DNA from: Escherichia phage BEBK14
DNA length: 50,853 nt
Strand: one strand, 5' to 3'
Sequence record: MN158214.1
Below, one piece after another: positions 336 to 49,821 of the stretch (position 1 is the stretch's first letter; the number at the start of each line of letters is the position of its first letter). Below the pieces are notes generated by a model. It did no database searches, was not told the origin of the DNA, and saw nothing but the letters and a program-made list of their open reading frames with translations. The position numbers were made by a program, and so were the translations under genes.

Positions 336-1454
336 TTATTTCTCTGCCATCTCAGGATAAAACATAAATCTTCCGATTTCGCCGTGTTCTTTGTCGTAAA
401 TGATAACCGCAGCACGGCGACGGGAACGCCAACCGCCTCGCGCGGCGTATGCGTCTTTAGCTGCCATCGTGCTATGTACTTCAACAATGCCGAGCGATGT
501 TTCTGTTACAGTCTGATGATGAAAATGCCCTACGTGCGCATACATCGTTTTTGAGTTGCCGAAGTCCTCCCGCCAGTCTGCCGCGCACATCATTAGCAAT
601 GTTTCCGGCTTGCGGACGGTGTGACCGTGATGATATGCAAGGAAGGTTTTTCCGTACTGCGTATGGTGAACCACTCGCGGCGATACATCAACGTAAACGC
701 GCGGCTCTTTTTCATATGCCGCCGCCATAGCTGCACGTAACCAGATCATGCCGCTTTGGTCATGGTTTCCCTCAATTATCTGGATCTCTACTTCTTTGTG
801 TTTTTTGAGCATCAACTCAATGGCACGACGGACGGCGCGGATTGCCACGTAAACCAATTTTGCGTATCGGCTATCTTGATCCAGGACGTGACCGCTTGCA
901 GGCGTTACTGCTTCCAGGCCGTCACTATGAAGCATGTCACCCCCAATCAGTAGCACAGCTTTCTCGCTGAACGGTGCACAGGCCACAGCATAATCGAAAA
1001 AGTCATTCATTACTTTCTCAGCCGTGGAAGTATCCCAATTCTCGCCGCATTCGTGTTTGTGCGCCATAGCTCCCAGGTGCATATCAAAAACGGGGTAAAG
1101 GGCAAGGCTTTCGCTGTATTCGCTCGCTTCTTCCGGTGTCGGATCTACTCGCGGCAATTCTTCGGTAAAAGCGTCCATAGCTGCACGCATCAACGCTTCC
1201 AGTTGCTCTTTGTCCTTACTGGTCTTTGTCCATTTGACGATCACGTTACCTTCTTTGTCGGTCATGACCGATTCACCGTGAACACCAAAACCAGGAGTTC
1301 CGATGGTTGATATTTTACCCTGTTTTGCCAGTCGTGCCGCTCGGCGCTCGACGCTACGAACGTTAAGGCCGTATTCCTCAGCAATCTGACGATAGCTCTT
1401 ACCCTTTAATCGCTCATGCGTGAATTGCTCGTCCGTTATCTTGCTCTGACTCAT
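336..1454 (-). CDS. HTH domain + calcineurin-like metallophosphoesterase
   Basis: N-terminal HTH-like segment (SYRQIAEEYGLNVRSVERR); metallophosphatase-like motifs GDMLHSDG, GNHD, HHGH in translation. Confidence 0.55.
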   Translation of the reverse strand: MSQSKITDEQFTHERLKGKSYRQIAEEYGLNVRSVERRAARLAKQGKISTIGTPGFGVHGESVMTDKEGNVIVKWTKTSKDKEQLEALMRAAMDAFTEELPRVDPTPEEASEYSESLALYPVFDMHLGAMAHKHECGENWDTSTAEKVMNDFFDYAVACAPFSEKAVLLIGGDMLHSDGLEAVTPASGHVLDQDSRYAKLVYVAIRAVRRAIELMLKKHKEVEIQIIEGNHDQSGMIWLRAAMAAAYEKEPRVYVDVSPRVVHHTQYGKTFLAYHHGHTVRKPETLLMMCAADWREDFGNSKTMYAHVGHFHHQTVTETSLGIVEVHSTMAAKDAYAARGGWRSRRRAAVIIYDKEHGEIGRFMFYPEMAEK

Positions 1455-1554: not shown

Positions 1555-1797
1555 TCACTTATAATATTTGCGAGGCTCTCGAATTTTAGCCATTGCCTCT
1601 TTGAAATCAATTTTTGTTGGTATGGCTGGAACTCGCACCATCTTGCGCGGCTTTTCCTTGAGGAAAGTCATTTTGCCGCCTCCGATCACGCTGATGTCTG
1701 CAATATCGAAATATTGCGCGATCTTCTTTATGTCGTCAGCCATCCCCATTTCGTTTATATGTTGCCAGACTGCTTCACGCCCTTGTTCAACTTTCAT
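1555..1797 (-). CDS. hypothetical protein
   Basis: ORF with GGAGG RBS before internal ATG (MKVEQ...). Confidence 0.4.
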   Translation of the reverse strand: MKVEQGREAVWQHINEMGMADDIKKIAQYFDIADISVIGGGKMTFLKEKPRKMVRVPAIPTKIDFKEAMAKIREPRKYYK

Positions 1798-1966
1798 GCT
1801 TATAATATACCTCCGCAAATTCTAATGGGTAGTGACCATATGCAACGCGAAGTAGAATCATTGCAGCGCCCCAATCAAGCTGCATATTGTTTTTCGTTCC
1901 ACCTTTTACCGCCTCGCGTGCTGTTTGTTGCGCCTGGTCAAATGCTTTCTTGCTATATACTACCAT
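1787..1966 (-). CDS. hypothetical protein
   Basis: ORF downstream of extended box element 1981..2042; RBS GAGGAA. Confidence 0.4.
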   Translation of the reverse strand: MVVYSKKAFDQAQQTAREAVKGGTKNNMQLDWGAAMILLRVAYGHYPLEFAEVYYKHES

Positions 1967-2025
1967 TTTCATTTCCTCATGTTCGTTTCGATGAAATAAT
2001 TATGCCCGACAAAATGCCGGGCGTT

Positions 2026-2042
2026 TTAACAAAAAGTGCTGT
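2026..2042 (-). promoter_or_regulatory. 17-bp box copy (extended form)
   Basis: followed on minus strand by hairpin, CATAAT (1999..2004) and TTTCATCGAAACGAA. Confidence 0.5.
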
Positions 2043-2299
2043 TAGTGGATCATTCCGTGCTGAAAATTCCACGAATCGACAAATTCTTGCATGTCATTTC
2101 TGATCTGTTCATGCCATTTTTCAAGCGGGAGTTTTTTTGTCTCCTCAAAGCTCATATCCAATGCGCTTGAAAATTCCCACGGATCGCAATCAATCATCTT
2201 TTTCACGTTAGGGTTTTTATCAAGCGCATCGCAAACCATAGCGCGATAAAGCAACCATTCGCCACACTCATTTAAATAAACGCTTCTTTCTTTTTGCAT
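2042..2299 (-). CDS. hypothetical protein
   Basis: 85-aa ORF, co-oriented and adjacent to neighbouring minus-strand genes. Confidence 0.4.
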   Translation of the reverse strand: MQKERSVYLNECGEWLLYRAMVCDALDKNPNVKKMIDCDPWEFSSALDMSFEETKKLPLEKWHEQIRNDMQEFVDSWNFQHGMIH

Positions 2300-3005: not shown

Positions 3006-3064
3006 GTTAATATCCTCGCGATTGCCTTGTTTATTTGATTATGGCTCAATCCATCGCGCCTGTT

Positions 3065-5523: not shown

Positions 5524-5581
5524 AACTGTCTCTTTTAATAAGCCATTAGGCGTGTATAATACACACGTTCAAAAGCTATTT

Positions 5582-5598
5582 TTAACAAAAAGTGCTAT
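5582..5598 (-). promoter_or_regulatory. 17-bp box copy in divergent region
   Basis: TATTAT ~21 bp downstream toward helicase; opposite face abuts RBS/ATG of 5609 gene. Confidence 0.45.
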
Positions 5599-5608
5599 GA
5601 GGTGCAAA

Positions 5609-6085
5609 ATGAAAGAAAAGCGAATCGCGGCCTATACTGGTGAGATTGACAAGAGAACATTGAACGGCAACAACGGAACGCGACGCGGCAAGGACAAGAA
5701 GCCACGCAAGCCGCGCACCGGATATTACATACTGAAAGAAGAAGTAAAAGCCGGACTGACCGCTCGCCTTGATATTCTTCTGGAGTATTTCGGAGGTGTG
5801 GCAAATATGGCTCGTCGATTGGGAGTATCCCAGCAAACTGTAAATATGTGGCGCAAGCGCGGGATGATTTCAGCGATGGGCGCACAACGCGTGCATAATG
5901 ACTACAAATATAATGGCTGTAAAGGCTATCGCGCATCATTCTGTCGCCCGGATCTAAAATTCGACTCAAACGGTAAGCCGCTTGTTACACGTTGCGAACG
6001 TCGTGAGATGTTGCGAGTGGTAACGATGCGCGATTATGAACCTGGCGGAATATTTTACAAAGAACCAAAAAGCACAAATAGCTAA
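5609..6085 (+). CDS. HTH DNA-binding protein (putative transcriptional regulator)
   Basis: ATG 5609 follows box copy and GAGGTG RBS; HTH-like segment GVANMARRLGVSQQTVNMWRKRG. Confidence 0.5.
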   Translation: MKEKRIAAYTGEIDKRTLNGNNGTRRGKDKKPRKPRTGYYILKEEVKAGLTARLDILLEYFGGVANMARRLGVSQQTVNMWRKRGMISAMGAQRVHNDYKYNGCKGYRASFCRPDLKFDSNGKPLVTRCERREMLRVVTMRDYEPGGIFYKEPKSTNS

Positions 6086-7118: not shown

Positions 7119-7149
7119 GCCTGCAAAACTGCTATTCTCAATGTTGTCA

Positions 7150-7166
7150 TTAGCAAAAAGTGCTAT
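7150..7166 (-). promoter_or_regulatory. 17-bp box copy (variant TTAGCA; no -10 partner)
   Basis: between terminator 7095..7118 and RBS/ATG of fibre gene; orientation opposite to flanking genes. Confidence 0.35.
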
Positions 7167-23907: not shown

Positions 23908-23924
23908 ATAGCATTTTTTGTTAA
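23908..23924 (+). promoter_or_regulatory. 17-bp box copy
   Basis: between major-tail terminator and G-like gene RBS; TAGATT 22 bp away on plus strand (antisense to late genes). Confidence 0.35.
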
Positions 23925-23967
23925 AAGTCTGAATGACTTGTTTGATAGATTCTACAGGAACGAAAAA

Positions 23968-27656: not shown

Positions 27657-27673
27657 ATAGCACTTTTTGTTAA
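27657..27673 (+). promoter_or_regulatory. 17-bp box copy
   Basis: upstream of capsid-gene hairpin/RBS; TATTCA 22 bp away on plus strand. Confidence 0.35.
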
Positions 27674-27700
27674 AGGTGCAAATCTATTTTGTGGTATTCA

Positions 27701-32320: not shown

Positions 32321-32335
32321 TGATTATACTTTCTT

Positions 32336-32352
32336 TTAGCAATTCGTGCTAT
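32336..32352 (-). promoter_or_regulatory. 17-bp box copy (variant CGAATTGCTAA)
   Basis: contains TAG stop of terminase; TATAAT 32323..32328 only 7 bp downstream, then hairpin + T-run, then portal RBS. Confidence 0.45.
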
Positions 32353-41838: not shown

Positions 41839-42021
41839 TTACTTAATTCTTACCTCAACATTAATATCTGCGTTGGGGGCGAATAGCTGCGCCTTGCCGT
41901 TAACGCGAATGGTGAGAATGTTCTCTTTGCGGCAGTTATCCAGCACCAGGCGATATTTGCCAGCAAACTTAACCATCATTCCCGGTTTGACTTCGCTCAT
42001 TTTGATGATTTTATCCATCAT
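41839..42021 (-). CDS. hypothetical protein
   Basis: 60-aa ORF after ~200-nt GC-rich leader. Confidence 0.35.
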   Translation of the reverse strand: MMDKIIKMSEVKPGMMVKFAGKYRLVLDNCRKENILTIRVNGKAQLFAPNADINVEVRIK

Positions 42022-43021: not shown

Positions 43022-43430
43022 ATTATAAGTGCTATTTTATGCGTGTCAATGTTTATTTTGTCCGTATAACGTTCGCGTCCTGTTCGCGTTGCCGAAGTTT
43101 TGAGAGAATCACTACATAACCACATGATTTGCAATAAGTTTTTACCGCTTGTTTTCTTTCTGTTCGCGCTGTTAGCGCAATATCGCAATAAAAGTATATA
43201 TACATACTCATTCCACCAGGCGCGCAACTATCCATATATATACCAACAAAGCGACACCGCAACCATCACATACCACACTAACAACGCTAACAAGAAATAA
43301 CACATAAATATATACATAAATAAATATTCTTTATTTTCAATGTATTATAAGGGATTTATTTTGTTTTTTGCGTTCGCAATACATTGAAAAACAGCGCGGA
43401 AACATGTCGCCCTGAAACGCGAACACGCAC
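43022..43430. other. AT-rich divergent control region B with GTTCGCG repeats (possible origin/operator region)
   Basis: GTTCGCG at 43071, 43082, 43162; CGCGAAC at 43418; ATACATAAATAAATATTCTTTATTTT block; no convincing ORF over ~720 bp. Confidence 0.55.
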
Positions 43431-43643: not shown

Positions 43644-43660
43644 ATAGCACTTTTTGTTAA
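43644..43660 (+). promoter_or_regulatory. 17-bp box copy
   Basis: TACATT 43682..43687, 21 bp downstream, then ACACACATCGAAAC; precedes first rightward early gene. Confidence 0.55.
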
Positions 43661-45716: not shown

Positions 45717-45940
45717 TGAGTCAGGACGGATTTTTTGAACGCCTTCAAATGGCAGAAGATGCCGGACTAAATAAAGAGGCGGCGCTTGAAGTTGCATATA
45801 AGATTAAGACTCTTGATGAGGCGCTAGGTGATATGGATATGAATCTTGAATCAAGCGCAATATTTGCAGATCCCACTATGATTGTTAATGATTGTGGATG
45901 CGATTTCGATCCTAGCTGTCCTCGCTGTTTTCCGTTTTGA
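45716..45940 (+). CDS. hypothetical protein
   Basis: 74-aa acidic ORF. Confidence 0.35.
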   Translation: MSQDGFFERLQMAEDAGLNKEAALEVAYKIKTLDEALGDMDMNLESSAIFADPTMIVNDCGCDFDPSCPRCFPF

Positions 45941-45950
45941 GGTAATGACG

Positions 45951-46655
45951 ATGTATAAAGGTTTAATATTCTCCCTATTTGATGGGTCTGGTAAAGCCGT
46001 TAAAGATTGGGCTGATAATGGCTATAAGTGCATTTGCTTTAATGCTGACGGTGGCGATCACGGTGATTACCAGTCAGTGCGCATAAAGCATGAGAATATC
46101 GAATATGTTAACGTCTGGATTGACGATGCTTTTTATGTTAAGGCAATAAATAATGAGTGGGGCAATCCTGATTTTATTATGGCCTTCCCACCATGCACTG
46201 ACCTTGCAAATAGCGGATCTCGCCATTGGGCTAAAAAACGCCTTGAGAATCCATCGTTCCAGGATGATGCCGCCGACACTTGCAGAATCGCGGCTGATAT
46301 AGCTGATTATTTCGGTGTTCCTTACATGATCGAAAATCCGGTTGGCAAGTTGTCAACGTTATGGCGAAAGCCTGATTATACGTTCCATCCGTGCGATTAC
46401 GCTGGCTATCTGCCGGAAGATGATAAGCATCCAGACTTCCCTGATATTATTCCGGCGCGTGATTGCTACTTTAAGAAAACATGCCTTTGGACTGGAAACG
46501 GCTTTATCGTTCCACAGAGAAAACTGGTATTGCCAACCGAGAAGGATAACCCAGGCTGGGCTAAAACTGGTGGCAAATCATCCAGAACAAAGATGATACG
46601 CTCCCTCACTCCGCGAGGATTTGCTCGCGCCGTATTTGAGGCAAACTCAAAATAG
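45951..46655 (+). CDS. putative DNA (cytosine-5) methyltransferase-like protein
   Basis: motif I-like FSLFDGSG, PC motif (PPCTDL), ENV-like (IENPVG); short for a complete C5-MTase. Confidence 0.45.
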   Translation: MYKGLIFSLFDGSGKAVKDWADNGYKCICFNADGGDHGDYQSVRIKHENIEYVNVWIDDAFYVKAINNEWGNPDFIMAFPPCTDLANSGSRHWAKKRLENPSFQDDAADTCRIAADIADYFGVPYMIENPVGKLSTLWRKPDYTFHPCDYAGYLPEDDKHPDFPDIIPARDCYFKKTCLWTGNGFIVPQRKLVLPTEKDNPGWAKTGGKSSRTKMIRSLTPRGFARAVFEANSK

Positions 46656-46668
46656 CACTTTTTGTTAA
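46652..46668 (+). promoter_or_regulatory. 17-bp box copy (extended form)
   Basis: contains TAG stop of MTase-like gene; hairpin 46672..46690, CATAAT, GTTTCAACGAAAAC. Confidence 0.55.
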
Positions 46669-46727
46669 AACGCCCGACCTTGAGTCGGGCATAATGCGTT
46701 TCAACGAAAACAACTGGAGAAAATCAA

Positions 46728-47114
46728 ATGAAAGTTATCCGCAATTCCGACAACAAATTGATGAACGGTCGCTATAAAACTGTTTACACAAAAGTAGCTG
46801 GCAGCGACGACGTGATCGAGATGGAGGAATTTCAGGTTAAGGCGCTGGCTAAGGGCGCGAAGTGGGAATCAGCCAACCAGGACGAATACCGCACTATCAA
46901 GGCAAAGACGATTCTATGTACGTTTGTTGATCACCGGATGGCAACCAAAAAAAGTTTTAAAGCTGGAAAGCGTTACCAGGTCGAACAGGGTCGCGCTCTT
47001 GGGGCAGTTGCTGGTTACGTCTTCGATGAGGACGGCGACCGATGGACGCTCTACCGCGAGGAGGTCGGATTCTCTGCTGGTTACTCTTATCTTTTTGAGG
47101 CCAAATATTCATGA
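46728..47114 (+). CDS. hypothetical protein
   Basis: preceded by extended box element. Confidence 0.45.
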   Translation: MKVIRNSDNKLMNGRYKTVYTKVAGSDDVIEMEEFQVKALAKGAKWESANQDEYRTIKAKTILCTFVDHRMATKKSFKAGKRYQVEQGRALGAVAGYVFDEDGDRWTLYREEVGFSAGYSYLFEAKYS

Positions 47115-47399: not shown

Positions 47400-48983
47400 A
47401 TGAATTTTTCATTTGAAACAAGTCAGTTATCACCGAAACAAATCATTGAAACCGCCGAATCTCAAGGTATTTCCCCTGTTCGTGTATCCATTCAGGCCAA
47501 CGGATACCGCCAATCTTCAAGCTATTGGGGTCAGGTGGAAGATATTAACGGCGGTAACGACCGCTACCCTGTCATTTCACTTGGGAATGATGTTGATGTA
47601 GTTGGTAAGCTGGCGCGCAATCTTGCGAGATCTGTTCAATTCCCTGAATCATCGGCCTACATGCACTTTATCGGATGTATTTCTGCCGCTATGCTTGGTC
47701 GATTCACAGTTGACTACCACGGAACAGATCAGCCGACCGCGCTTTACGTTGTGACAAGCCAGCCTCCGTCGGCAGGTAAATCCGCGATTAACAGTCTGGC
47801 TATTGCTCCTATGGTTGCAGAGGTTGATCGCATCAACGAGCAACGCAAGAAAGATCGAAAAAAGATACAGGCAAAACTTGCCGGACTACTAAAGGAGATG
47901 AAAAGCGAACGCTCCGGCGCAGATATGGAGATTCTATATCAAGAAAAAGAAGATCTGGAAGAAAAACTAAGCAAACTTTGCGATGTTGTTTTCCCTGTTT
48001 CCGACACAACGCCTGAGGGATTGGCAAAGATAAATAACAGGCAAGGCAACTTCGCGGTTATTTCTGATGAAGCAACCAGTATTAACAGTCTGCTTGGTCT
48101 GACTTACGCTAATAGCGAGCGCAAAACTAACAGCGAACTTGTGTTAAAAGCATGGGATCACGGCCATGTTTCTATCGCCCGTTCTAATGCAGACAATAAC
48201 ATGAGTTTTTTTGCGCTTGGATGTATGAGTGTTATCGCCCAGGATGAAACCATTAATGGCATCATGGATGCAGGATCTCGTGGCATCGGTGTAAGCGAGC
48301 GTTTTCTACTGGTGCGCGAACAGCCGTTAATCGGTACGCGTGTATTTGTGGATGAGAATGGTGATTCAACTTACGAACCAGTAGACGGTGAATTGAAAGC
48401 GCAATACTTTCAGTTGGTGCATAACATTATGAGCGAAATTAACGTTTCTCTGAAAGTTAGCCGTTCTGCAATGCGCGTGCTGAACATTGCACGCCAGGAT
48501 ATGGAACCGCATCTTGCCGACGGCGGAAAGTATTCGCATACGATGCTACGCGGTGCGCTGGGTAAAATGGATAAGCAGGTGATCCGCATTGCTGCCGTTC
48601 TGCATGTGATACGCAATTGGTTTAATCCTGCTGGATACCCGCAAAAGTCTAGAGAGATTGACGTTGACACGATGCAAGAAGCCTTGCTGATGTTCCATGA
48701 ATTGAGCAAAACGTATATCAGCGCGGCGAACGCGTCAGGCTATGCTGGTGATGATGCCGAGATGTCAAAACTGATTGAGTTAATCACCCGCCACGGTAAG
48801 GCAAATAAAGGCGTATTGAATGTCCGCGCTTTGTATGAGGCAGCACGCAAGGTAAAACCTTTCCTGGGGCAAGCTGGCGTGATGAAGCGCATAGAATCGC
48901 AACTGCTTCCGATGCTTGAGCAAAAAAACTACGTTTGTGTTATTAATGGTGTTATTTTTGTGAATCCTGTGTTAATGGGGTAA
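47400..48983 (+). CDS. P-loop NTPase, DUF3987/YfjI-like
   Basis: Walker A-like QPPSAGKS and Walker B-like VISDE; 527 aa. Confidence 0.45.
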   Translation: MNFSFETSQLSPKQIIETAESQGISPVRVSIQANGYRQSSSYWGQVEDINGGNDRYPVISLGNDVDVVGKLARNLARSVQFPESSAYMHFIGCISAAMLGRFTVDYHGTDQPTALYVVTSQPPSAGKSAINSLAIAPMVAEVDRINEQRKKDRKKIQAKLAGLLKEMKSERSGADMEILYQEKEDLEEKLSKLCDVVFPVSDTTPEGLAKINNRQGNFAVISDEATSINSLLGLTYANSERKTNSELVLKAWDHGHVSIARSNADNNMSFFALGCMSVIAQDETINGIMDAGSRGIGVSERFLLVREQPLIGTRVFVDENGDSTYEPVDGELKAQYFQLVHNIMSEINVSLKVSRSAMRVLNIARQDMEPHLADGGKYSHTMLRGALGKMDKQVIRIAAVLHVIRNWFNPAGYPQKSREIDVDTMQEALLMFHELSKTYISAANASGYAGDDAEMSKLIELITRHGKANKGVLNVRALYEAARKVKPFLGQAGVMKRIESQLLPMLEQKNYVCVINGVIFVNPVLMG

Positions 48984-49378
48984 TGATGTTCATTCTGGAT
49001 CTCTACAGATGGTGTGAGTCTTACGACTGGTTTACTCGTCAGCACATTGCAAAATTTATCTATCAGCACAGAGAATGTGAACGCCTGGCGAAGCAGGCCG
49101 GATTCACCCCGCGCATGTTCGCTTCCATGCTATCGAAAGAGTTTTGCGCAAGAATGATGGGCGCTGGTTATCTGGATGGCGTTGAAGGTAGATTTTGGTG
49201 CATTGACGGATCTGCCCGTAGGCCGTTCGGATTCGAATTTTACACCTTTGAGGGAATGCAAAATGAATGGATAAGGGATATGGCACGGATAGGAGAAATG
49301 AGTGATGATGAACTCTTTGGAGCAAAGTCTAATAGACAAGATATTGAAATTTTGCGCCGTAAATTCAATATCACATGA
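48983..49378 (+). CDS. hypothetical protein
   Basis: 131-aa ORF coupled to upstream gene. Confidence 0.4.
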   Translation: MMFILDLYRWCESYDWFTRQHIAKFIYQHRECERLAKQAGFTPRMFASMLSKEFCARMMGAGYLDGVEGRFWCIDGSARRPFGFEFYTFEGMQNEWIRDMARIGEMSDDELFGAKSNRQDIEILRRKFNIT

Positions 49379-49499
49379 TGATTTCATTCATGCGTTACTT
49401 ACGCTGCTTTTATCGGATATGCGTGCCTTTGACACTTCCGAACACAATTTATGTGATGATGATGGTGTCTTGCTGGTTACGGTGAAGCGGATGGAATAG
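49305..49499 (+). CDS. hypothetical protein
   Basis: AGGAGA RBS; stop TAG inside box copy. Confidence 0.3.
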   Translation: MMNSLEQSLIDKILKFCAVNSISHDDFIHALLTLLLSDMRAFDTSEHNLCDDDGVLLVTVKRME

Positions 49500-49512
49500 C
49501 ACTTTTTGTTAA
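49496..49512 (+). promoter_or_regulatory. 17-bp box copy (extended form)
   Basis: contains TAG stop; hairpin 49516..49534, TATATT, GTTTCATCGAAACGAA. Confidence 0.55.
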
Positions 49513-49571
49513 AACGCCCGGCTTATAGTCGGGTATATTTGTTTCATCGAAACGAATATGAGGAAAACAAA

Positions 49572-49790
49572 ATGAGCAACAAATTTTTTACCGTGGCGCT
49601 GATTATCAAACATGAAAACGGCACTACCACTGAGATCCCTACAAAATTCCCAGCCGACTCCTGGACTCACGAGCAAGCTGTCGGATATGTTGAGGAAATG
49701 GCTAAACGCGTAATGGCTGGTCATTATGATATTGAATTTCAGGAAAACCAGAAGCTAACAAATCATTCACACGAATGGCCTGATGCTTAA
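49572..49790 (+). CDS. hypothetical protein
   Basis: GAGGAAA RBS; followed by terminator. Confidence 0.4.
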   Translation: MSNKFFTVALIIKHENGTTTEIPTKFPADSWTHEQAVGYVEEMAKRVMAGHYDIEFQENQKLTNHSHEWPDA

Positions 49791-49795
49791 AAATA

Positions 49796-49821
49796 AAGGA
49801 GGCTTTAAGCCTCCTTTTTCT
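49796..49821. terminator. rho-independent terminator between early operon and lysis cassette
   Basis: AAGGAGGCTTTAAGCCTCCTT + T5; near-identical stem to 119..141. Confidence 0.65.

Follow-up and report, generated by a model that had tools for sequence, protein, structure and literature searches.

Three intergenic cassettes of a T1-like phage combine a direct-repeat box, a −10-like hexamer and a spacer hairpin conserved by structure

The window analysed here, the whole stretch of 50,853 nucleotides, is a complete Warwickvirus genome (Drexlerviridae, T1-like). Three segments of it share an architecture in which a 20-nt box is followed at a fixed distance by a −10-like hexamer, and a short G+C-rich hairpin occupies the interval. 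We consider it somewhat probable that each segment is a composite cassette, in which a box-class promoter is merged with a leaky terminator or attenuator (or a protective 3′ hairpin), and which also serves as a recombination boundary.

Layout and similarity of the three cassettes

An earlier note had singled out three extended copies of a box element followed by a hairpin and a palindrome, and we found the segments at the positions and on the strands it gave. Cassette 1 (1981..2042, minus strand) starts directly 3′ of the stop codon of an 85-aa ORF (2042..2299), with a TAA 2 nt 5′ of the box, and ends in the 5′ UTR of a 59/61-aa ORF. Its box, ACAGCACTTTTTGTTAAAAC (2042..2023, minus strand), would occupy promoter positions of about −50 to −31. 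On the same strand follow the spacer hairpin GCCCGGC-ATTTT-GTCGGGC (2022..2004; −12.6 kcal/mol as sense RNA and −8.1 kcal/mol as antisense; tail ATAATTATTT), a −10-like hexamer, CATAAT (2004..1999), whose first base is the last base of the stem, and ATTTCATCGAAAC (1997..1985), which comprises a T-rich discriminator and the family start-site motif and would place +1 at the A at 1992. The small ORF downstream (1787..1972, minus strand; MKMVVYSKK...; phrog_2180) is homologous to ORFs that follow box-plus-hairpin cassettes in T1 and TLS (gp63).

Cassettes 2 (46652..46712) and 3 (49496..49556) lie on the plus strand. In both, the box is ATAGCACTTTTTGTTAAAAC (46652..46671 and 49496..49515), and the TAG within its initial ATAG is the stop codon of the upstream ORF, a dcm-like methylase gene (45882..46655) for cassette 2 and a 65-aa ORF (49302..49499) for cassette 3. 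Cassette 2 continues with the hairpin GCCCGAC-CTTGA-GTCGGGC (46672..46690; RNA −12.3 kcal/mol; tail ATAATGCGTTT), the −10-like hexamer CATAAT (46690..46695) and GTTTCAACGAAAAC (46698..46711), an imperfect copy of the palindrome with the start-site motif and a predicted start near 46703, ahead of a 128-aa ORF (46728..47114; phrog_2684). Cassette 3 continues with GCCCGGC-TTATA-GTCGGGT (49516..49534; two G·U pairs; RNA −11.2 kcal/mol sense and −5.8 kcal/mol antisense; tail ATATTTGTTT), TATATT (49534..49539) and GTTTCATCGAAAC (49541..49553), the sole exact copy of the palindrome, with a predicted +1 at the A at 49546. It precedes a 72-aa ORF (49572..49790; phrog_27210), after which comes a bidirectional terminator (49795..49817). 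A ribosome-binding site (RBS) and ATG follow each cassette; the distance from the start of the box to the ATG is 76 nt in cassettes 2 (46652 to 46728) and 3 (49496 to 49572), and 70 or 76 nt in cassette 1 (2042 to 1972 or 1966).

Pairwise alignment bore out the claim that the copies resemble each other beyond the core box, with 82–88% identity over 60 aligned bases (49/60, 52/59 and 49/60 aligned columns) and 29–33 identities in the 39–40 positions 3′ of the 20-nt box. Between the three cassettes the stem arms are equal at 6–7 of 7 positions and the loops at 2 of 5 (ATTTT, CTTGA, TTATA). The pattern CCCGRC-N5-GTCGGG matches the window exactly three times, each time just 3′ of a box, against 0.11 matches expected from shuffled sequence. 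Since the remaining box copies in the window have only 11–60% ungapped identity across the 45 nt 3′ of the box, the similarity of the three cassettes clearly exceeds the core. Structure prediction agreed that the hairpin folds in every copy, a search of related phages recovered the box at 330 unique sites in IMG/VR T1-like contigs, and the description of a regulatory module present in repeated copies holds up. Altogether, 624 phage records yielded about 1,000 cassette copies.

The box as a candidate upstream promoter half

The box is the 21-nt direct repeat published for phage TLS, aaATAGCACnnnTTGnTAAAA, with 0, 0 and 1 mismatches to the consensus in the three copies; the box of copy 1 begins with ACAG rather than ATAG. 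In the window, TLS and T1 taken together, the best match to a −10-like hexamer lies exactly 19 nt after TAAAA at 44 of 58 box sites, and a sigma-70-type −10 hexamer lies exactly 19 nt past the box at 284 of the 330 unique IMG/VR sites, counts that, like the other statistics given here, include related sequences and are uncorrected for phylogeny. The 58 sites from the three genomes yield a promoter logo of aAATAGCACTTTTTGTTAAAAc-N13-T.tG.TATaaT-N3-c.cA, with information maxima at G−14, A−11 and T−7, the positions that sigma-70 reads. Every box site is oriented toward its downstream gene, with an RBS and ATG about 76 nt from the start of the box. Given the fixed distance to the hexamer at 284 of 330 sites, the box looks like the upstream half of a promoter.

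The three cassettes depart from a near-consensus sigma-70 promoter (TTGACA, 17 nt, TATAAT): their −10 hexamers are CATAAT, CATAAT and TATATT, the T of the extended −10 TG is missing, and the direct-repeat (DR) box stands in place of a −35 element. None has a −35-like hexamer at 16–18 nt, the best candidates being TTAAAA at 19 nt or TTGTTA at 22–23 nt, and a sigma-70 promoter scan of the window did not list them. A tentative reading, which we think somewhat unlikely, is that the DR box, instead of being a variant −35 or UP element, is the site of a phage-encoded or phage-modified host factor that replaces −35 recognition, as a T1-type counterpart of T4 MotA/AsiA; in that case the approximately 20 box promoters of each genome would be a temporal class of their own, and the hairpins would make the units self-insulating and ready for recombination, like the PmSLs discussed below. 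No MotA or AsiA homologue was identified in the phage. Were this reading true, T1-like phages would gain a defined regulatory code, and the question raised in 2024 about the 21-nt repeat would be answered.

Two other candidates for recognition of the box were rejected. A phage sigma factor was considered on account of a 372-aa ORF (336..1454, minus strand) with a Sigma70_r4_2 match below threshold, whose annotation in Jahat reads ‘sigma 70 region’; its T1 and TLS orthologues are annotated as SbcD-like or as a proof-reading exonuclease. A sigma-54 promoter was rejected by eye, because TAGCAC-N3-TTG has the wrong spacing and lacks the GG of TGGCAC-N5-TTGC.

Downstream of the hexamer, the motif CA-TCGAAAC recurs family-wide, including at promoters without a hairpin, and is the putative start site. 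The palindrome reported in all three copies is exact in copy 3, while copy 1 has ATTTC and copy 2 a one-base insertion (GAAAAC). As RNA the 13-mer folds with −1.0, 0 and 0 kcal/mol in the three copies; its helix lacks covariation, and 8 of 15 relatives break the outer pair. We therefore rejected the palindrome as an RNA hairpin, since it is unstable in two of the three copies and does not covary; on the same grounds, the proposal that a factor reads GTTTCATCGAAAC found no support. In copy 3 only, the inverted repeat is longer (TATATTTGTTTC/GAAACGAATATG, −8.6 kcal/mol). The palindrome appears to arise where the T-rich tail of the hairpin meets the start-site motif of the family, and it has no independent support as an element of its own.

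A spacer hairpin conserved by structure

Fifteen distinct relatives were gathered with a pattern that left the spacer free. In these, the stem is 96% paired, both sides have changed at three of the seven pairs, and the non-canonical cells comprise 11 G·U and 0 A·C, whereas a shifted pairing register gives only 22–51% pairing. Family-wide, stem mismatches number 168 G·T versus 56 A·C, and G·U pairs are present in the hairpins of copies 1 and 3. Across the 330 sites, the 40 nt past the box fold better on the sense strand than on the antisense strand (mean z −2.80 versus −1.56; minimum free energy −11.3 versus −9.5 kcal/mol; Wilcoxon p ~1e-19), a comparison that was also run on the three genomes (window, TLS and T1). 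Short loops are often GAAA, TTCG, GAGA or GCAA across the family. We conclude that the hairpin fills the promoter spacer and is conserved by structure, not by sequence.

Family-wide, the 3′ ends of the stems cluster at the −10 hexamer or exactly at −1, so that the promoter's own transcript would lack the hairpin. Spacer-filling and −10-overlapping placements both occur across the family, and many box sites lack a hairpin or have it in another place. In this genome, other stems stand at the same promoter position (CCAGC/GCTGG, GCGGGGC/GCTCCGC and GGCGCGA/TTGAGCC), and such a variety of stems at one position argues against a sequence-specific operator. A search of the whole window against Rfam 15 at the gathering threshold returned zero matches.

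Several properties of the hairpins are those of terminators. The three have 7–8 pairs, of which 5–6 are G-C, and start 20 nt past the upstream stop codon. A terminator scan flagged copies 1 and 3 as terminator-like and did not flag copy 2; at least 5 T occur in the 8 nt after the stem in copies 1 and 3 and not in copy 2. Tails of this kind occur at 44% of spacer-filling short-loop hairpins and at 11% of other box sites over the same interval (odds ratio 6.5). This signal came from a stricter definition of the hairpin class and from tails scored over 8 nt; when the T content of the 6-nt discriminator had first been compared between hairpin classes in a cruder way, little difference and no clear signal emerged. 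Hairpin strength is also greater at boxes that coincide with the end of a co-directional ORF (−12.3 versus −9.0 kcal/mol, p = 0.02). Depositors labelled an equivalent T1 hairpin (41978..42000) a rho-independent terminator, the same annotation is found on equivalent hairpins of the Klebsiella phage PhiKpNIH-10 (33008..33032 and two others), and in TLS the terminator T62 directly follows DR12, the orthologue of cassette 1. A U-tract is missing altogether from the majority of box-associated hairpins, whose loop contains the −10, so classical termination cannot be the role of the hairpins in general. In the three cassettes the U-tract is interrupted (AUAAUUAUUU, AUAUUUGUUU, AUAAUGCGUUU), because the −10 hexamer must be encoded there too. 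Taken from these features, the cassette hairpin is probably a leaky stop signal for the upstream gene.

Gene exchange, alternative readings and known systems

Two of the cassette loci are positionally conserved across genera. Cassette 1, which lies after dam and a small ORF and upstream of a conserved gene of ~60 aa, is the positional orthologue of TLS DR12 and of T1 39976; the downstream proteins are homologous (hhalign 94%), and box and spacer hairpin are also found at this locus in T1 and TLS, with different stems. Cassette 2 is the positional orthologue of TLS DR14, after dcm, where the stems are GCCGGAT/ATCCGGC in TLS and GCCAGGT/ACCTGGC in mar001J1. The module of cassette 3 is absent from TLS. 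With two of three loci conserved in this way, the recent duplication or transposition put forward in the earlier note is unsupported, and its interpretation as a whole is partly supported. Some exchange between cassette copies is plausible: mar001J1 has two cassettes with identical hairpins, loop included. Copies 1 and 3 are the most similar pair, and paralogy of their downstream genes was considered and rejected; a BLASTP match (RVxxGHYxxEFxE, E = 4e-4) was lost in profile–profile comparison (hhalign probability 1%). The relatives L006 and L017 align to 48901..49564 of the window through cassette 3 and then carry an unrelated 73-aa ORF until the shared terminator; judged from these alignments, cassette 3 is a breakpoint for replacement of a cargo gene.

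The composite reading that we favour would work as follows. Each cassette occupies the gap between two early genes, with the stop codon of the first at one end and the start codon of the second at the other. Its putative promoter part consists of the 20-nt box, at predicted positions of about −50 to −31, and the sigma-70-type −10 hexamer at a fixed distance, with transcription predicted to start at the A of C-A-TCGAAAC, ~25 nt 5′ of the ATG, and the 7-bp G+C-rich hairpin exactly fills the spacer. Because the hairpin lies upstream of the cassette's own start site, it would be made only in read-through RNA from the upstream gene, where its role may be that of a leaky intrinsic terminator or attenuator, or at the least of a protective hairpin at the 3′ end. 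Its U-rich tail would be supplied by the −10 hexamer together with the T-rich discriminator (TATATTTGTTT, CATAATTATTT), both of which would serve two purposes. The outcome would be a self-insulating promoter/terminator unit, whose conserved sequence could also offer a recombination boundary for the exchange of small genes between phages. The sequences themselves document the architecture, the constant spacing, a structure kept through compensatory changes, the bias to the sense strand and the orthology of position; promoter activity, start site, termination and the protein that reads the box are inferences.

Much of this evidence bears equally on a role in RNA stability without termination, which we consider unlikely: polycistronic read-through RNA would be cut in the A/U-rich −10/start region, and the hairpin, as a 3′-end stabiliser or processing barrier, would shield the upstream fragment from 3′ exonucleases. 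The sense-strand bias and the compensatory changes fit this as well as they fit termination, the U-tail of copy 2 is poor, and most box hairpins, with the −10 in the loop and a 3′ arm that ends at −1, are conserved as well despite having no U-tract. However, T-rich tails are enriched at spacer-filling short-loop hairpins, and the orthologues in TLS, T1 and PhiKpNIH-10 satisfy terminator-prediction criteria. A lambda nut-type RNA signal, in which a boxA-like box and a boxB-like hairpin load an antitermination factor onto polymerase arriving from upstream, is to us the least credible reading. The sense RNA would indeed carry a short hairpin behind a conserved linear motif, and GCACUUUUU resembles the boxA core GCUCUUUA by eye; but we rejected the resemblance to rrn/lambda boxA because many box copies have GAA or AAA for the U-run. 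In addition, the loops are not conserved even between the three cassettes (2 of 5 positions identical), many box sites have the hairpin missing or elsewhere, and a role in RNA leaves the fixed 19-nt distance to a TATAAT-like hexamer unexplained.

Action of the inverted repeat in DNA is improbable in either of two forms. The repeat could be an operator for a dimeric phage regulator between box and −10, or the start-site dyad GTTTCATCGAAAC could be one, so that the three genes are co-regulated. The half-sites GCCCGRC are nearly shared by the three window copies, operators classically sit between the −35 and −10 regions, HTH proteins are encoded by the phage, and symmetric change of half-sites could mimic compensation. 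Against an operator, mismatches are of the G·T kind on the sense strand only (11 versus 0 in the subfamily, 168 versus 56 family-wide), relatives have RNA-type tetraloops, and the sense strand folds better than the antisense; unrelated stems occupy the same position of other promoters in the same genome, and the dyad, without covariation, is broken in most relatives. Alternatively, and at a similarly low probability, a cruciform or non-template-strand hairpin could form in supercoiled or transiently single-stranded DNA and tune promoter opening or the box to −10 spacing. The unusual length of that spacing would suit such a role, as would the tolerance of DNA hairpins for G·T pairs, although GNRA and UUCG loops and a strong preference for the sense strand are typical of RNA, and a stem of 7 bp around a 5-nt loop is on the short side for extruding a cruciform. 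The precise match of hairpin ends to promoter landmarks (the −10 hexamer or −1) likewise speaks for this reading, but is also explained if hairpins are allowed only at unconstrained positions upstream of +1. We find it very improbable that the extended similarity only reflects a promoter segment recently duplicated or spread by gene conversion, with a hairpin that is functionless by itself. The paired cassettes of mar001J1 and the likeness of copies 1 and 3 of the window through the 5′ UTR as far as the ATG are what such a history would leave; against it, hairpins stand at orthologous loci of different genera with different sequences and compensatory changes, and in the window the loops have diverged and the stems have not.

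Among the classical T phages, T1 is the one whose transcription is least understood, the transcription programme of T1-like phages is essentially uncharacterised, and we found no transcript data on them in the literature, Term-seq and RNA-seq included. What the 21-nt intergenic repeat does is named as an open question in the 2024 TLS re-annotation (PMC11447400). The repeat now becomes a testable model, with an upstream promoter half, a fixed extended −10, a start at a conserved CA and, at nearly every copy, a nested sense-strand RNA hairpin, and the three cassettes are the clearest cases of the spacer-filling, terminator-looking hairpin subclass. If confirmed, composite promoter/terminator cassettes, so far a feature of T4-type myoviruses, would be a convergent solution in an unrelated siphovirus family. 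The sites of small accessory gene swaps in Drexlerviridae would be explained, and compact insulated expression parts would become available for engineering T1-like phages, which are widely used in therapy collections.

The cassettes can be set beside several known systems. T4 middle promoters, used through sigma appropriation, stand before early and DNA-metabolism genes and have a phage-specific MotA box, in place of a recognisable −35, upstream of a good sigma-70 −10 element; the cassettes resemble these in layout only, as their box is centred near −40 rather than −30 and differs in sequence. With intrinsic terminators, among them the ‘transcripton’ layout that Roberts et al. (2004, cited in PMC11447400) put forward for T1, they share a G+C-rich stem of 7–8 bp, a short loop, a position 20 nt past a stop codon and a T-rich stretch afterwards, but their U-tract is interrupted and copy 2 fails the simple rule. 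The TLS paper (German, Kropinski, Misra et al. 2024, PMC11447400) was the only report we found in searching the literature for the box sequence and for Drexlerviridae start sites or RNA-seq promoter data. It leaves the function of the 21-nt repeat open, with a stoperator, an enhancer site and an UP element as its suggestions. The TLS repeats and the cassettes agree in sequence, intergenic position, orientation with transcription and a distance of ~76 nt to the start codon, whereas the fixed −10 hexamer, the nested hairpins and the start-site motif are not part of that description, which lists T62 beside DR12 without linking them.

The closest parallels are the promoter-early and promoter-middle stem-loop cassettes (PeSLs and PmSLs) of T4-type phages (Arbiol et al. 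2010, PMC2839356; Comeau et al. 2014, PMC4122927). The promoter and terminator activities of PeSLs were tested experimentally (PMC2839356). Their stem-loop, which contains G-T pairs, lies mostly between the −35 and −10 or overlaps the −10, and has been proposed, and in one case tested, to be a terminator or attenuator of upstream transcription; PeSLs are repeated many times among small early genes and mark the boundaries of ORF insertion, deletion or replacement (PMC2839356, PMC4122927). The cassettes described here are like PeSLs in the placement of the stem-loop, in the G-T pairs and in marking a boundary of small-ORF replacement. They differ in belonging to another phage family (a siphovirus of the Drexlerviridae), in having no sequence homology to PeSLs, and in their upstream half, which is the DR box where PeSLs have an AT-rich tract and a consensus TTGACA −35. 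Should the DR box prove to be an activator site, PmSLs, in which a Mot box replaces the −35, would be the nearer analogue.

Three matched cassettes and the box that opens them

The window is a complete T1-like siphovirus genome (50,853 bp), with 99.4% identity to Escherichia phage MatMar and 98.6% to Jahat_MG145 (Drexlerviridae, Tempevirinae, Warwickvirus). Small early genes diverge from a point at about 43.3 kb, and the remainder is taken up by genes for replication and lysis and by the structural operon. Within the divergent early control region lies a perfect sigma-70 consensus promoter at 43022..43049 (-) (TTGACA-16-TATAAT, 12/12), the sole example in the scanned parts of the window and probably the immediate-early leftward promoter. 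A 372-aa ORF at 336..1454 (-), labelled 'sigma 70 region' in Jahat_MG145, has a sub-threshold N-terminal match to Sigma70_r4_2/HTH_28; its T1 and TLS orthologs are annotated as SbcD-like or proof-reading exonucleases.

We confirmed the three segments of the earlier note at 1981..2042 (-; cassette 1), 46652..46712 (+; cassette 2) and 49496..49556 (+; cassette 3). Each opens with a 20-nt box, (A/C)(T/C)AGCACTTTTTGTTAAAAC, in effect ATAG or ACAG plus CACTTTTTGTTAAAAC, followed by a 19-nt hairpin, GCCCGRC-N5-GTCGGGY, and a hexamer, CATAAT or TATATT, whose first base is the last base of the stem. A T-rich stretch then leads to (C)ATCGAAAC or AACGAAAAC, and the cassette ends with an RBS and ATG. Only these three places in the window match the hairpin pattern, with 0.11 occurrences expected. 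Gapped alignment over 60 columns gave 82-88% identity between copies, with stems agreeing at six or seven of seven positions and loops at only two of five. As claimed, the likeness reaches past the box, since post-box identity is 73-85%, far above the 11-60% of the other box copies in the window. We conclude that the observation is real and non-random. Within a promoter family that has already appeared in print as a repeat with no assigned function, these segments match one another best.

That repeat is the 21-nt direct repeat (DR) aaATAGCACnnnTTGnTAAAA of phage TLS, described in 2024 and occurring also in T1, Rtp and Rogue1 (PMC11447400). The TLS authors, who found only three sigma-70-like promoters in that phage, regarded the role of the repeat as an open question and suggested a stoperator, an enhancer site or an UP element; hairpins do not come up in their paper, nor do the promoter-early stem-loop (PeSL) cassettes of T4-type phages (PMC11447400). 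In the window, the 16-nt core of the box has 14 copies with up to three mismatches (0.94 expected), and a wider consensus gives about 20.

The window, TLS and T1 together supplied 58 box sites for an alignment anchored on the box. In 44 of the 58, exactly 19 nt separate TAAAA from the hexamer most like TATAAT, and this spacing recurs in 284 of 330 unique sites taken from T1-like phage contigs in IMG/VR. The logo of the 58 sites reads aAATAGCACTTTTTGTTAAAAc-N13-T.tG.TATaaT-N3-c.cA, with information peaking at the G of the TG in the extended -10 and at the second and sixth bases of the hexamer, which are the bases read most strictly by sigma-70. The CA seven bases past the hexamer is at the expected transcription start position. 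We infer that the box forms a promoter's upstream half; because the -10 hexamer and the start CA lie at a fixed distance, its predicted span is about -50 to -31. No canonical -35 is present in box promoters, where the candidates are TTAAAA (19 nt) and TTGTTA (22-23 nt), and a simple sigma-70 scan did not list the three cassettes. The box may be either an unusual -35/UP combination or an activator site.

Some box copies are arranged differently. Antisense boxes lie inside or beside the late structural operon, at 23908..23926 (+), 27657..27675 (+) and 7148..7166 (-), at the major tail protein/tape-measure chaperone, major capsid/decoration-scaffold and primase/tail-fibre gene junctions. They have weak -10 hexamers and weak hairpins, occupy equivalent places in T1 (18850-, 15086-), TLS (15042-) and Warwickvirus mar001J1 (4230+, 7982+, 37767-), and could be antisense promoters or orientation-independent binding sites. 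The box at 32334..32352 (-) is followed by TATAAT after only 5 nt, unlike the usual 19-nt spacing, and then by a canonical terminator, GGCTGGATTTTTCCAGCCTTTTTT, to about 32285, just upstream of the portal gene; mar001J1 has this arrangement at 12828-. The helicase box promoter at 5556..5598 (-), facing a divergent HTH regulator gene (5600..6085, phrog_2856), carries a palindrome, GTGTGTATTATACAC, centred on the -10, with an operator-like look not shared by the remaining hairpins at boxes; different dyads stand at this place in T1 and TLS.

Hairpins in the predicted promoters

The 40 nt past the box had a mean fold z of -2.8 in the window, TLS and T1, with 37 of 58 sites below -2. Among the 330 sites, the sense strand folded more stably than the antisense strand (MFE -11.3 versus -9.5 kcal/mol; z -2.80 versus -1.56), although G+T content is higher on the antisense side. 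A hairpin finder that scored G·T and A·C alike returned 168 G·T and 56 A·C stem mismatches, and found stable stems in 78% of sites versus 25% of shuffled controls. GAAA, TTCG, GAGA and GCAA are frequent among the short loops. Box promoters in general carry hairpins, and these look RNA-like; all the counts in this paragraph include related sequences, with phylogeny uncorrected. The stem 3′ ends form two clusters, one at the start of the -10 hexamer, with the stem filling the spacer as in cassettes 1-3, and one exactly at -1, with the -10 within the loop. In both classes the hairpin would be absent from the predicted promoter's own transcript and present only in upstream read-through RNA.

Searching IMG/VR with the box, hexamer and start motif fixed and the spacer free gave 21 sites, and in all but one or two of these the spacer holds a stem of 7 bp with a loop of 5 nt. 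Across the 15 distinct sequences the stem is 96% paired, compared with 22-51% for a register-shifted control. Three of the seven pairs show two-sided changes (G-C to A-U, C-G to G-C, C-G to U-A), and two more vary via G·U, with 11 G·U cells and no A·C. We conclude from these substitutions that the spacer hairpin of the cassette subfamily is kept by structure.

Termination is one role that such a hairpin may have. A terminator scan flagged copies 1 and 3 (8 pairs; tails ATAATTATTT and ATATTTGTTT) and left copy 2 unflagged; cassette stem energies (-11.2 to -12.6 kcal/mol) are similar to those of clear terminators of the same genome. At least five T in the 8-nt tail were found for 44% of spacer-filling short-loop hairpins versus 11% for the equivalent 8 nt at other box sites, hairpins are stronger at boxes where a co-directional ORF ends, and depositors have labelled corresponding hairpins as terminators, both in T1 (41978..42000) and at three sites in Klebsiella phage PhiKpNIH-10. 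However, the U-tracts are interrupted, and the commoner hairpin class has no U-tract; the broader role may be attenuation or 3′-end protection. Cassettes 1-3 belong to the group of predicted promoters whose spacer is filled by an RNA hairpin that is conserved in structure and resembles a terminator.

Two further observations concern stem sequence. The dam promoter spacer hairpin at 3040..3062 (-), GGCGCGA-TGGA-TTGAGCC, has a stem-breaking base in the window, versus TTGCGCC in Jahat_MG145 and mar001J1. Many stems in the window, TLS and mar001J1 contain CCGG or CCWGG (GCCCGGC, GCCGGAT/ATCCGGC, GCCAGGT/ACCTGGC, GCCAGGC/GCCTGGC), and a cytosine methylase gene is present in the phage; the copy 2 stem has neither motif, and their presence may be a mere consequence of G+C-rich stems.

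The earlier note had also proposed a factor recognising a 13-nt palindrome, which proved exact in copy 3 only and inexact in copies 1 and 2. RNA structure prediction gave it -1.0, 0 and 0 kcal/mol in copies 1-3. There is no covariation in the second helix, GTTTC/GAAAC, which in 8 of 15 sequences cannot form its outer pair. Its TTTC is the end of the T-rich tail conserved in the cassette subfamily, and ATCGAAAC is a family-wide start-site motif found also at promoters lacking the palindrome, such as ACACACATCGAAAC at 43644; only in copy 3 and close orthologs is the dyad lengthened to 11-12 bp. Since the halves are a T-rich tail and a start-site motif that do not covary, such a factor is unsupported. 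Several unrelated stems occupy one promoter position inside single genomes, which argues against a single sequence-specific DNA-binding protein.

Age and probable exchange of the cassettes

Cassette 1 lies after dam and a small ORF and before a conserved gene of about 60 aa. At this locus T1 has a box and CCCGGC-GAAA-GTCGGG, and TLS has its repeat copy DR12 and then CCCGC-TACG-GCGGG-TTTT, listed as terminator T62 by its authors; the proteins downstream of cassette 1 and DR12 are homologous (hhalign 94%). Cassette 2 follows a dcm-like gene, where TLS has GCCGGAT/ATCCGGC and mar001J1 has GCCAGGT/ACCTGGC. An 80-nt query from cassette 3 gave 1,070 matches in 624 phage records (hosts Escherichia, Klebsiella, Shigella, Salmonella and others). 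Because the cassette 1 and 2 loci hold box hairpins with other stems in relatives, the proposed recent duplication or transposition is unsupported; this distribution indicates that the cassettes have been in place for a long time and did not insert recently.

In mar001J1, the orthologs of copies 3 and 1 (28902+ and 32645-) have 19-nt hairpins identical even in the loop, CTAGT, and the loops of their window counterparts differ at three of five positions. Such a pattern suggests that, in the mar001J1 lineage, cassettes lying far apart have undergone gene conversion. Two contigs of relatives align to the window from 48901 through cassette 3 to 49564, past which they encode a 73-aa ORF unrelated to the 72-aa ORF of the window; alignment resumes at the terminator. 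The whole cassette 3 module is absent from TLS. A short BLASTP match between the genes downstream of copies 1 and 3 disappeared at profile level; these genes are not paralogues, and cassette likeness is therefore independent of cargo. What stands of the original proposal is a repeated regulatory module with some copy-to-copy exchange, without recent transposition.

Relation to known stem-loop cassettes

Rfam contains no family matching the window. All functions proposed here for the cassettes are predictions. The closest analogue is the PeSL, whose stem-loop, which includes G-T pairs, is mostly placed over the -10 or between it and the -35, and whose terminator and promoter activities have been experimentally tested (PMC2839356); PeSLs also have a part in shuffling ORFans (PMC2839356; PMC4122927). 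The T1-type cassettes share this layout and the link to gene replacement. Unlike PeSLs, they occur in another phage family, have another sequence, and carry the DR box where PeSLs have a consensus -35. Should that box be the binding site of an activator, the nearer parallel would be the promoter-middle stem-loop (PmSL) cassette of T4-type phages, which carries the Mot box.
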